This document shows, in pieces, positions 1-2,827 of a DNA stretch of 2,827 nt. Below the pieces are notes generated by a model. The model saw nothing but the letters and a program-made list of their open reading frames with translations, ran no database searches and was not told the DNA's origin. Source of the stretch: Enterobacteria phage CUS-3; the sequence record FN394993.1; one strand, 5' to 3'. Position numbers and translations under genes: made by a program. Positions within the stretch are counted from its first letter, which is position 1. The number at the start of each line of letters is the position of its first letter.

Positions 1-438
1 ATGGCGCGCCCAACAAAGTATCAAGAGGCGTATGCCGAACAGGCACGCAAACTGTGCTTGCTGGGCTACACCGATGCAGAGCTTGCTGATTTCTTCGAAG
101 TCAGTGAGTCAACTATTAACAAGTGGAAGCTTGATTATCCTGAGTTTTCGGAGTCCATAAAAAAGGGTAAGGCCGTCGCTGATGCAGAAGTTAGTGACCG
201 TCTTTATCAACGCGCTATGGGCTTCGTGGCTCCAGACATCGATATTCGTGTTATTGAAAACAGAATTGTCGAAACTCCGCTTGAGAAGTATTACCCGCCT
301 GATACAACTGCCGCCATCTTCTGGCTTAAGAACCGACAGAAGGATAAATGGCGCGACAAGGTTGATCACGAGCTAACAGGCAAAGACGGCGGCGCAATTC
401 AGATTGAAACATCACCGATGAGCACTCTGTTCGGAAAA
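1..438 (+). CDS. Phage terminase small subunit (DNA-packaging protein), N-terminal ~146 aa; 3' end and stop codon hidden in the N-run
   Basis: ATG at position 1, frame 1 open through 438 (MARPTKYQEAYAEQARKLCLLGYTDAELADFFEVSESTINKWKL...AIFWLKNRQKDKWRDKVDHELTGKDGGAIQIETSPMSTLFGK). N-terminal helix-turn-helix-like segment followed by a basic K/R/W-rich stretch is typical of small terminase subunits; the C-terminal tail resembles what I recall of Sf6/P22-like TerS proteins. Upstream RBS cannot be assessed because the window begins at the start codon. Family assignment is by recall, not search. Confidence 0.65.
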
Positions 439-538
439 NNNNNNNNNNNNNNNNNNNNNNNNNNNNNNNNNNNNNNNNNNNNNNNNNNNNNNNNNNNNNN
501 NNNNNNNNNNNNNNNNNNNNNNNNNNNNNNNNNNNNNN
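439..538. other. Run of exactly 100 N (masked sequence or unknown-size scaffold gap)
   Basis: Direct observation. Last readable base is 438, first readable base after it is 539. Length 100 is not a multiple of 3 and the reading frame changes across it (frame 1 before, frame 2 after). Confidence 0.99.
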
Positions 539-1762
539 TCTGAGCCATGTGTAAAATATTATGATGGCATTCTGTATCTGACGACCAGGGGGACATTAAG
601 TACTCAACCCGGTAGTTCATTGCACAGAAGCTCTGATTTAGGTACATCATGGAATTCTCTTCGCTTCCCAAATAATGTTCATCACTCAAACCTTCCTTTT
701 GCCAAAGTTGGCGATGAGCTGATTATTTTTGGCAGTGAGCGCGCATTTGGTGAGTGGGAAGGAGGAGAACCTGATAACCGTTATGCAGGAAACTATCCAA
801 GAACATTTATGACCAGAGTTAACGTCAATGAGTGGAGTCTGGATAATGTAGAGTGGGTTAATGTTACTGATCAGATTTATCAGGGCGGAATAGTTAACTC
901 TGCGGTTGGTGTTGGTTCAGTTTGTATCAAAGACAACTGGCTGTACTACATTTTCGGTGGGGAAGACTTTCTAAACCCATGGAGCATAGGGGATAACAAC
1001 AGAAAATATCCTTATGTTCACGATGGTCACNNNNNNNNNNNNNNNNNNNNNNNNNNNNNNNNNNNNNNNNNNNNNNNNNNNNNNNNNNNNNNNNNNNNNN
1101 NNNNNNNNNNNNNNNNNNNNNNNNNNNNNNNNNNNNNNNNNNNNNNNNNNNNNNNNNNNNNNNNNNNNNNNNNNNNNNNNNNNNNNNNNNNNNNNNNNNN
1201 NNNNNNNNNNNNNNNNNNNNNNNNNNNNNNNNNNNNNNNNNNNNNNNNNNNNNNNNNNNNNNNNNNNNNNNNNNNNNNNNNNNNNNNNNNNNNNNNNNNN
1301 NNNNNNNNNNNNNNNNNNNNNAGCGGCGGTGAAACAACGTCTTCAGCAGATGGTGCAATGATAACGTTGCATGGTTCCGGAAGCAGTACTCCACGTCGCG
1401 CGGTATATAACGCACTCGAACATCTTTTTGAGAACGGAGATGTTAAACCTTATCTTGATAATGTAAATGCTCTTGGTGGTCCGGGAAACAGGTTCTCGAT
1501 AGTTTATCTTGGCTCCAATCCTGTGGTTACCAGTGACGGAACATTAAAGACAGAGCCGGTCTCTCCTGACGAAACATTGCTGGATGCCTGGGGTGACGTC
1601 AGGTATATCGCTTATAAATGGCTGAACGCTGTCGCTATAAAGGGGGAAGAAGGGGCGAGGATACATCATGGTGTAATCGCGCAGCAACTTCGTGATGTTC
1701 TTATTTCTCACGGACTCATGGAAGAAGAAAGCACAACATGCCGCTATGCCTTTCTTTGCTAT
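539..1762 (+). CDS. Tailspike / tail fibre protein, endosialidase-type, internal-to-C-terminal portion (partial at both ends; 1031-1321 masked)
   Basis: Frame 2 is open with no stop across 539-1030 (164 codons) and 1322-1762 (147 codons); the intervening N-run is 291 nt (97 codons), so the frame is preserved. First segment: ...YYDGILYLTTRGTLSTQPGSSLHRSSDLGTSWNSLRFPNN...GSVCIKDNWLYYIFGGEDFLNPWSIGDNNRKYPYVHDGH with an Asp-box-like motif. Second segment: ...SIVYLGSNPVVTS/DGTLKTEPVSPDETLLDAWGDVRYIAYKWLNAVAIKGEEGARIHHGVIAQQLRDVLISHGLMEEESTTCRYAFLCY, matching the C-terminal intramolecular chaperone domain (peptidase S74 type) of endosialidases and related tail fibres. Not in the supplied ORF track because it has no stop inside readable sequence. 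Confidence 0.8.
629..652 (+). other. Asp-box (bacterial neuraminidase repeat) motif SSDLGTSW within the tailspike
   Basis: Codons agc tct gat tta ggt aca tca tgg in frame 2 encode S-S-D-L-G-T-S-W, a close variant of the S-x-D-x-G-x-T-W Asp-box found in sialidase beta-propellers. Confidence 0.6.
1031..1321. other. Run of 291 N inside the tailspike reading frame
   Basis: Direct observation. Length is a multiple of 3 and the frame-2 ORF is continuous in phase across it, consistent with length-preserving masking of real coding sequence. Confidence 0.99.
1532..1762 (+). other. Predicted Ser-Asp autoproteolytic site (1532-1537) and start of the C-terminal intramolecular chaperone domain of the tailspike
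   Basis: agt gac at 1532-1537 encodes the S-D dipeptide in the context PVVTS/DGTLKTEP, followed by LLDAWGDVRYIAYKW...HHGVIAQQLRDVL...CRYAFLCY. In K1F endosialidase and related fibres the chaperone domain is released by cleavage at a conserved Ser-Asp. The domain continues into the next N-run. Confidence 0.65.
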
Positions 1763-2179
1763 NNNNNNNNNNNNNNNNNNNNNNNNNNNNNNNNNNNNNN
1801 NNNNNNNNNNNNNNNNNNNNNNNNNNNNNNNNNNNNNNNNNNNNNNNNNNNNNNNNNNNNNNNNNNNNNNNNNNNNNNNNNNNNNNNNNNNNNNNNNNNN
1901 NNNNNNNNNNNNNNNNNNNNNNNNNNNNNNNNNNNNNNNNNNNNNNNNNNNNNNNNNNNNNNNNNNNNNNNNNNNNNNNNNNNNNNNNNNNNNNNNNNNN
2001 NNNNNNNNNNNNNNNNNNNNNNNNNNNNNNNNNNNNNNNNNNNNNNNNNNNNNNNNNNNNNNNNNNNNNNNNNNNNNNNNNNNNNNNNNNNNNNNNNNNN
2101 NNNNNNNNNNNNNNNNNNNNNNNNNNNNNNNNNNNNNNNNNNNNNNNNNNNNNNNNNNNNNNNNNNNNNNNNNNNNNNN
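1763..2179. other. Run of 417 N covering the tailspike 3' end, the intergenic region and probably the 5' end of the acetyltransferase gene
   Basis: Direct observation. Length is a multiple of 3. Only about 76 aa of the chaperone domain are readable before it, so the tailspike stop must lie inside this run. Confidence 0.99.
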
Positions 2180-2827
2180 ATGTCGTTTTCCGTTGATGAT
2201 AATGGATCAGGTAATATTTTTGTATGTGGAGATCTTGTAAATAGCAAAGAGAATAAAGTTCAGTTCAATGGAAACAATAACAAACTTATTATAGAAGATG
2301 ATGTTGAGTGTCGATGGCTTACCGTAATATTTAGGGGTGATAATAATTACGTAAGAATACATAAAAACAGTAAGATTAAAGGTGATATTGTCGCAACAAA
2401 AGGTTCAAAAGTTATTATCGGTAGAAGAACGACAATAGGTGCAGGTTTTGAAGTCGTCACTGATAAGTGCAATGTTACAATTGGCCATGACTGCATGATA
2501 GCAAGAGATGTTATTTTGCGTGCATCAGATGGGCATCCTATATTTGATATTCATAGCAAAAAAAGGATTAATTGGGCAAAAGATATCATTATATCTAGTT
2601 ACGTATGGGTAGGGAGAAATGTCTCTATAATGAAAGGGGTATCTGTTGGAAGCGGATCTGTCATTGGGTATGGGAGTATTGTAACTAAAGATGTGCCATC
2701 TATGTGTGCAGCAGCCGGTAATCCAGCAAAAATAATAAAAAGAAATATAATATGGGCAAGAACGGATAAAGCGGAGCTAATTAGTGATGACAAGAGATGC
2801 TCCAGCTATCATGCGAAGCTCACGCAA
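2180..2827 (+). CDS. neuO: Hexapeptide-repeat (left-handed beta-helix) O-acetyltransferase, NeuO-like polysialic acid O-acetyltransferase candidate; partial (runs off the 3' window edge, 5' end possibly masked)
   Basis: Frame 2 open for 216 codons from the ATG at 2180 to the window end with no stop: MSFSVDDNGSGNIFVCGDLV...KVIIGRRTTIGAGFEVVTDKCNVTIGHDCMIARDVILRASDGHPIFD...YVWVGRNVSIMKGVSVGSGSVIGYGSIVTKDVPSMCAAAGNPAKIIK.... Imperfect [LIV]-G-x-x-x-x hexapeptide repeats across ~2411-2740 are characteristic of sugar O-acetyltransferases. The neuO symbol rests on context (directly downstream of an endosialidase-type tailspike, same strand, AT-rich), as I recall for CUS-3; the generic family call is firm (~0.85), the specific symbol less so. 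Confidence 0.6.
   Translation, partial: MSFSVDDNGSGNIFVCGDLVNSKENKVQFNGNNNKLIIEDDVECRWLTVIFRGDNNYVRIHKNSKIKGDIVATKGSKVIIGRRTTIGAGFEVVTDKCNVTIGHDCMIARDVILRASDGHPIFDIHSKKRINWAKDIIISSYVWVGRNVSIMKGVSVGSGSVIGYGSIVTKDVPSMCAAAGNPAKIIKRNIIWARTDKAELISDDKRCSSYHAKLTQ

Follow-up and report, generated by a model that had tools for sequence, protein, structure and literature searches.

The endosialidase tailspike gene siaK1 and the capsule acetyltransferase gene neuO of phage CUS-3 in a gapped record with the layout of a genotyping series

A typing record of phage CUS-3

Sequence record FN394993.1 of Enterobacteria phage CUS-3 (2,827 nucleotides (nt); this whole stretch is called the window below) carries parts of the small terminase subunit gene, of siaK1, which encodes an endosialidase tailspike, and of neuO, which encodes an O-acetyltransferase for the K1 capsule. 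The window is almost certainly a multi-locus typing record of CUS-3, a P22-like temperate phage (Lederbergvirus) in Escherichia coli K1, in which runs of N join the pieces and from which the neuO repeat was removed. Four pieces were readable, at 1-438, 539-1030, 1322-1762, and 2180-2827, with N runs of 100, 291, and 417 between them, so that N makes up about 31% of 539-2827 and about 29% of the whole window. An open reading frame scan gave one open frame per piece, all on the plus strand; the minus-strand frames, of at most 96 amino acids, lay inside plus-strand genes or spanned N runs and were treated as chance. The GC content decreased along the window, from 48% (terminase) through 42-47% (the two tailspike pieces) to 36% (neuO).

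When phage records were searched at the nucleotide level, 17 GenBank records of exactly 2,827 bp matched the window, all of them named Enterobacteria phage CUS-3 (terminase/siaK1/neuO). Sixteen were 99.4-99.9% identical to the window and the seventeenth 98.1%; the host was written as serovar K1 in every case. They belong to a typing series (FN394986-FN395002 and FN394218) of GT_x genotypes from K1 isolates; of the numbers in the first run, FN394993 alone was missing among the hits. These genotyping records have the length of 2,827 bp, the N runs, and the four partial coding sequences in common with the window, whereas none of the 17 was identical to it in sequence. The closest, FN394995 (GT_11), differed at two bases only, 1500 (T/C) and 1574 (A/G); it annotates four partial coding sequences exactly at the four pieces of the window, and its N runs coincide with those described above. 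Since the 17 records share the layout, the partial coding sequences, and the N runs, the window is taken as a record of this genotyping series and not as a stretch of a genome. None of the data contradicted this reading.

Because the record was edited and concatenated, the adjacency of terminase and mid-tailspike sequence and the start of neuO, as they appear in it, are artefacts and have to be treated with caution. An automated scan that takes such records as a genome would misread the layout and miss the neuO switch. The initial annotation had regarded the window as a surface-polysaccharide modification locus; the genes are as it named them, and the locus itself is here a gapped, concatenated typing record without the neuO repeat.

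Position of the pieces in the complete CUS-3 genome

The four pieces were compared with CP000711, the CUS-3 prophage of strain RS218, and were 98.6, 100, 99.8, and 99.5% identical to it in the order of the window. The first tailspike piece, which is 100% identical, corresponds to CP000711 3522-4013. In the reverse-complemented CUS-3 genome, the terminase piece ends at 17940 and the first tailspike piece starts at 36195, so that 18,254 bp separate the two; the 100 N in the window are therefore a nominal spacer. Between them lie the genes for large terminase, portal, scaffold, coat, head completion, and injection, together with the immI region and codons 1-486 of the tailspike. The other two N runs proved true to length. 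CUS-3 also has 291 bases between the two tailspike pieces (36686 to 36978, reverse complement), which keeps the frame, and 417 bases between the second tailspike piece and the neuO ATG, made up of 264 nt of siaK1 and 153 nt of intergenic sequence; beyond this gap, CUS-3 carries 133 bp of repeat. The features of the window are listed in Table 1.

Table 1. Features of the 2,827-nt window FN394993.1, including the N runs
Feature	Positions	Strand	Remarks
Small terminase subunit gene	1..438	+	First 146 codons; lies outside the stretch initially annotated, part of the typing record
100-N gap	439..538	.	Nominal; stands for 18,254 bp of phage
siaK1 tailspike, propeller	539..1030	+	Residues 487-650 of 981; C-terminal part of the catalytic six-bladed beta-propeller
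291-N run	1031..1321	.	True to length; 97 codons of siaK1 (residues 651-747)
siaK1 tailspike, stalk end	1322..1531	+	Residues 748-817; triple beta-helix / End_tail_spike, up to the cleavage site NPVVT/S
siaK1 tailspike, chaperone	1532..1762	+	Residues 818-894; first 77 residues of the C-terminal intramolecular chaperone (Peptidase_S74)
417-N run	1763..2179	.	True to length; last 87 siaK1 codons and stop (264 nt), then 153-nt intergenic region with the probable promoter and ribosome-binding site of neuO
neuO start	2180..2184	+	ATG and the TC that precedes the repeat tract; (AAGACTC)n excised between 2184 and 2185
neuO body	2185..2827	+	Left-handed beta-helix O-acetyltransferase, through the last sense codon; stop just past the window

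In real genomes (CP000711 and E. coli MS1718), the order on the same strand is siaK1, neuO (153 bp further on in CP000711), and then the integrase gene; beyond the integrase lie a tRNA-Arg gene in MS1718 and the attL core in CP000711. The integration site of CUS-3 is argW (PMC9659370). The MS1718 locus consists of the tailspike, a neuO remnant, intS, and tRNA-Arg, and the two tailspike pieces and the neuO piece of the window are 100% identical there. From these homologous genomes, we infer that siaK1 and neuO are adjacent in the strain from which the window came. The window is nearly identical to CUS-3 genes that stand at either end of the late region, and this, together with siaK1 and neuO beside int and tRNA-Arg, places it in the Lederbergvirus CUS-3.

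The window thus has the genes, order, and strand of CUS-3 CP000711 and represents the same element; it differs in its gaps, in the missing repeat tract, in TC instead of TT after the neuO ATG, and in a few single-nucleotide differences, such as the one that gives Gly in the window and Arg in CUS-3 at SiaK1 residue 767. CUS-3, with siaK1 followed after 153 bp by neuO, was the phage that the initial annotation had named, and the identities of 98.6-100% by piece bear this out.

The terminase piece corresponds to CP000711 22268-22705, that is, to ECRS218_0022 ('phage terminase small subunit'), with 6 mismatches, and FN394995 likewise annotates 1-438 as the small terminase. In the domain searches, this piece reached no Pfam or NCBIfam cutoff and gave only weak helix-turn-helix and terminase hits; it was identified through its nucleotide match with the gene annotated in CUS-3. 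It is also the most diverged of the four pieces from the RS218 reference.

The endosialidase tailspike SiaK1

The piece at 539-1030 matched the Pfam family End_beta_propel (PF12217) with E=1.6e-104 and a score of 350 bits, where the cutoff is 24; the piece is partial and covers profile positions 192-355 of 367. Solved endosialidases aligned to it without gaps, phage phi92 4HIZ at 1.8e-83 and endoNF of phage K1F (1V0E/3GVK) at 3.3e-80. A single Asp-box (S-x-D-x-G-x-x-W), SSDLGTSW, was found at nt 629-652, and none elsewhere in the two tailspike pieces and the neuO piece. The active-site triad of endoNF is Glu581/Arg596/Arg647 (PMC2955717); its equivalents are residues E2, R17, and R68 of the piece (542-544, 587-589, and 740-742), as read from the gap-free 1V0E alignment with an offset set by the mature chain ending at residue 910. 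A search of NCBIfam with this piece returned 0 families. In the annotation of CP000711, SiaK1 is an endo-alpha-sialidase by direct assay (GO:0016996, IDA, PMID 16689790).

The second tailspike piece, 1322-1762, matched End_tail_spike (PF12219) at 1.2e-32 over its amino acids 1-70 and, directly after this stalk, Peptidase_S74 (PF13884) at 1.4e-11 over amino acids 71-132, which cover the full profile (1-58). The structure of the endoNF stalk and chaperone (3GW6) matched the whole piece at 1e-60. The maturation site reads NPVVT/SDGTLK in the window (the slash marks the cut), and mature endoNF (1V0E) ends at the homologous NPIVT. Endosialidase chaperones use a Ser-Lys dyad (PMC3742443); the cleavage Ser is encoded at 1532-1534 and, five residues on, the dyad Lys at 1547-1549. 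The last 87 residues of the S74 domain fall under the N run in the window and were seen only in CUS-3.

These matches, like those of NeuO below, score far above what chance would give and bear out the initial description of an endosialidase-type tailspike with an Asp-box (PF12217, SSDLGTSW, 4HIZ, and 1V0E) and an S74-type chaperone domain (PF13884 and 3GW6). The best hits of the tailspike were endosialidases and not the non-sialidase fibres that would have spoken against that description. The term 'cargo module', which was used for the tailspike and the acetyltransferase together, fits in part: neuO is cargo, and it alone, whereas the tailspike is a structural, receptor-destroying protein of the virion.

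In the proposed mechanism, the tailspike would act as a trimer in the virion and, with its beta-propeller, cleave the alpha-2,8-polysialic acid of the K1 capsule to open the way to the cell surface for the phage. The S74 domain is predicted to chaperone the folding of the trimer and then to cut itself off at the Ser of VVT/SDGTLK.

EndoNF of the lytic coliphage K1F belongs to the same fold family and aligns with the window's tailspike without gaps. Shared features are the catalytic Glu/Arg/Arg, the Asp-box, the stalk, the T/S cleavage site, and the S74 Ser-Lys dyad. EndoNF is nevertheless a diverged homologue (E=3.3e-80, as opposed to 100% identity for CUS-3) from a T7-like lytic phage, and it has another N-terminal adaptor; the N-terminus of the CUS-3 tailspike is of the P22 type and lies outside the window.

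The two parts of the tailspike differed in their closest solved relatives. For the propeller piece, phi92 4HIZ (1.8e-83) was slightly ahead of K1F endoNF (3.3e-80), whereas for the stalk-and-chaperone piece, endoNF 3GW6 (1e-60) was far ahead of phi92 (2.8e-7). Because the propeller favours one phage and the stalk and chaperone the other, the comparison suggests a mosaic origin of the tailspike domains.

A further relative was seen in phage vB_EcoP_ZX5 (ZX5, MW722083), which shares 2,393 bp of tailspike with CUS-3 at 99.46% identity (3064-5456 in both stretches compared). ZX5 lacks neuO and differs in the N-terminal part; its tailspike is followed by a membrane protein, a holin, and an endolysin. 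ZX5 was also considered as a lytic K1 phage, and this was ruled out: its annotation includes an integrase and places it in Uetakevirus (epsilon15-like), so that it is a temperate phage. The shared stretch would fit a recent exchange of the endosialidase module between the lineages of ZX5 and CUS-3, both of them temperate podoviruses.

The O-acetyltransferase NeuO

The piece at 2180-2827 matched the solved NeuO of E. coli K1 (3JQY) at E=1.6e-142 (475 bits), with 215 aligned residues, no mismatch, and one conservative I/V difference, and it matched Pfam Hexapep at 4.2e-11. His119 and Trp143 (numbered without the heptads), which are catalytically important in NeuO (PMC3046976), are both present, at 2534-2536 and 2606-2608. 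The frame of neuO in CUS-3 ends with AKLTQ and a stop codon. Among the solved relatives of the neuO product, the sialate O-acetyltransferase OatWY (2WLC) came second at 3.2e-31, and maltose and galactoside acetyltransferases followed at about 1e-16 to 1e-19; the latter scored some 60-77 bits against the 475 bits of NeuO, so that the unrelated acetyltransferase clades named as refuting hits in the initial annotation did not come out best. In NCBIfam, the generic maltose, galactoside, and WbbJ acetyltransferase models all stayed far below their cutoffs for NeuO. A hexapeptide-repeat acetyltransferase downstream of the tailspike and on the same, plus, strand had been proposed, and the Hexapep and 3JQY matches confirmed both the enzyme and its place.

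OatWY of Neisseria meningitidis W-135/Y (PDB 2WLC) is, like NeuO, a left-handed beta-helix sialate O-acetyltransferase and has been described as the closest structural relative of NeuO (PMC3046976). It is only a distant paralogue, however, encoded on the chromosome instead of by a phage, and it has neither the heptanucleotide tract nor the heptad extension.

NeuO acts only on chains of at least 14 residues (PMC3046976), and its acetylation of K1 sialic acid gives Neu5,7Ac2, Neu5,8Ac2, and Neu5,9Ac2 (PMC13001214). Cells that have lost neuO are more susceptible to K1-specific phage (PMC13001214, PMC9659370) and to neutrophils (PMC13001214). In the proposed mechanism, NeuO would move the acetyl group from acetyl-CoA onto the sialic acids of the capsule, and this O-acetylation would lower killing by other K1 phages and by neutrophils. 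With a GC content of 36%, compared with 42-48% in the phage genes, neuO appears to be a later addition to the phage; beside this stands the near-identical endosialidase module of ZX5, which occurs without neuO.

The heptanucleotide tract of neuO

The start of neuO in the window reads ATGTC/GTTTTCC (2180-2191), and a repeat scan found no tandem repeat anywhere in the window. The corresponding sequence is ATG TT (AAGACTC)19 GTTTTCC in RS218/CUS-3 and ATG TC (AAGACTC)8 AAGACTA AAGACTC GTTTTCC in MS1718, that is, 10 units (8+1+1). ATGTC and GTTTTCC are the exact flanks of the MS1718 tract, and all 17 sibling records share the repeat-free length, which together indicate that editing of the record took out the tract in its canonical register and that ATGTC/GTTTTCC is the editing junction. 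A repeat-free gene that begins at the ATG at 2180 was considered and set aside: the start codon is natural, but it is joined to the body by the loss of 7n bases. The removal of the tract takes from the record the one biologically special feature of the locus, its heptanucleotide contingency tract.

The tract lies two nucleotides after the start codon, has 2-93 copies, and is prone to slippage; the copy number must be a multiple of three for a full-length enzyme (PMC3046976). It encodes RLKTQDS heptads, and catalytic efficiency rises linearly with their number (PMC3046976). Slippage of (AAGACTC)n two bases past the ATG would therefore turn neuO on and off, and a longer tract would give a more active enzyme.

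Copy numbers were derived from a survey of 5,426 complete E. coli genomes, in which spans and copy counts were taken from the hits listed. In 58 of the 60 complete genomes compared, the locus spanned 7n bases more than in the window, without remainder, which corresponds to tracts of n=5-53 across the 58. The number of copies was divisible by 3, and the gene hence in frame, in 22 of these 58 (38%). Free slippage would give about one-third, and 34% phase-ON has been reported among 64 genomes (PMC13001214); the value found here is near both. Neither RS218 (19 copies) nor MS1718 (10 units) is in frame.

The two bases between the ATG and the tract varied by allele: TC in the window (2183-2184) and in MS1718 (4645-4646), and TT in RS218 (5645-5646). 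The imperfect unit AAGACTA near the 3' end of the MS1718 tract might reduce slippage there.

The intergenic region and expression of neuO

The 153-nt region between siaK1 and neuO was read from CUS-3 (5489-5641), as it lies under the N run 1763-2179 of the window. A pattern scan of the CUS-3 sequence gave as its best sigma-70-like site ATGACA-17-TAAAAT with a TG, a 10/12 match that ends 16 nt before the neuO ATG. In the lysogen, neuO, a low-GC addition behind the tailspike, is most probably transcribed from a promoter of its own, for which this site is a candidate. DsdC, whose gene is a neighbour of the integration site, influences neuO transcription (PMC9659370). In the same region, GTTTCGTTGGCGTCAA and TTGACGTCAACGAAAT were seen by eye to form a long-range inverted repeat around about 50 nt; it stands just after the siaK1 stop codon and upstream of the promoter-like site.

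Alternative readings of the record

The account given so far has two limits. The roughly 29% of N in the window hides the C-terminal half of the chaperone, the intergenic region, and the repeat tract of this strain; and the promoter-like sites in the intergenic region numbered 6, which is not above the 5.3 +/- 1.7 in shuffled sequence. The window could also be a contiguous, decayed remnant of CUS-3 with a large deletion and a repeat-free, phase-locked neuO, in which the N runs are only masking. CUS-3-like prophages are known to decay in ways that retain neuO (PMC9659370), neuO stood beside a truncated tailspike or alone in some complete genomes (hits H88-H93), and the runs of 291 and 417 N are true to length. 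Such a remnant is nonetheless very improbable, for the identical 2,827-bp layout recurs in 17 independent records from different strains, where the parts are annotated as separate partial genes; among the hits listed, the join of terminase and tailspike is absent from the 5,426 complete genomes; and the 100 N are a nominal gap length. The repeat number in nature is reported as 2-93, never 0 (PMC3046976), and it was 5-53 in the genomes sampled here. A related reading, that the source strain carries a natural, repeat-free, phase-locked neuO+0 allele with the sequence ATGTCGTTTTCC, likewise has a very slender chance of being right.

The smallest chance attaches to the reading in which the tailspike comes from another K1 phage (a lytic one of the K1F/K1E type or an epsilon15-like one of the ZX5 type) and its link to neuO arose by concatenation. 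The Uetakevirus ZX5 does carry 2,393 bp of the tailspike at 99.46% without neuO, and the tailspike piece occurs without neuO in several complete genomes (hits H94-H104). Against this, the terminase piece is also CUS-3-like (98.6%), the sibling records are annotated as proviral CUS-3, and the tailspike and neuO pieces stand in one place, at 99.5-100% identity and with the expected gap plus 7n, in dozens of the genomes listed, including MS1718, where all three pieces match at 100%. For 29 of the 66 matched phage records, in a band whose phages are not itemised, the identity was only 60-80%. We therefore retain the window as a concatenated typing record of CUS-3.

Comparison with known systems

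The elements of the finding are already known: CUS-3, its endosialidase tailspike, NeuO, the crystal structure, and phase variation were described in 2005-2011, with follow-up work to 2026. The initial annotation had likewise regarded the locus as known biology rather than a new system, and the identity of the element with CUS-3 agrees with that judgement.

In serotype conversion of the P22 / epsilon15 type, gtrABC or O-antigen acetylase genes are placed after the tailspike. The logic is the same as in CUS-3, in that a temperate podovirus with a tailspike that destroys a surface polysaccharide has, beside the tailspike gene and int, a gene for the chemical modification of that very polysaccharide in the lysogen. 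CUS-3 differs in that the target is the capsule instead of the O-antigen and in that the coding sequence of the modifier contains a slipped-strand repeat that acts as its switch.

The tailspike and NeuO could also form a putative matched set, in which the CUS-3 endosialidase tolerates the NeuO-acetylated capsule while competing K1 phages are hindered. If true, the tailspike and neuO together would be a phase-variable superinfection-exclusion device that spares the spread of the resident phage itself. We consider this proposal unlikely; as for the effect on phages, the finding of the papers cited is limited to reduced killing by other K1 phages in cells with NeuO (PMC13001214, PMC9659370).

Distribution and decay in E. 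coli genomes

The tailspike-neuO pieces were matched in only 196 of the 5,426 complete genomes surveyed. No genome in this set covered at least 80% of the window in one place; every hit listed started at window position 539, and in these hits the terminase piece was not joined to the place of tailspike and neuO. Matches to the whole window occurred in 689 genomes, compared with 196 for the tailspike-neuO pieces alone; the excess presumably reflects the terminase piece or the propeller piece (539-1030) in other prophages.

CUS-3-like prophages have been reported to decay while retaining neuO (PMC9659370). Several decay states were seen among the hits. H88-H90 have neuO beside 5'-truncated remnants of the tailspike, H91-H93 have only neuO, and H94-H104 have the tailspike piece but no neuO; in H23, an IS3 element lies within the tailspike.

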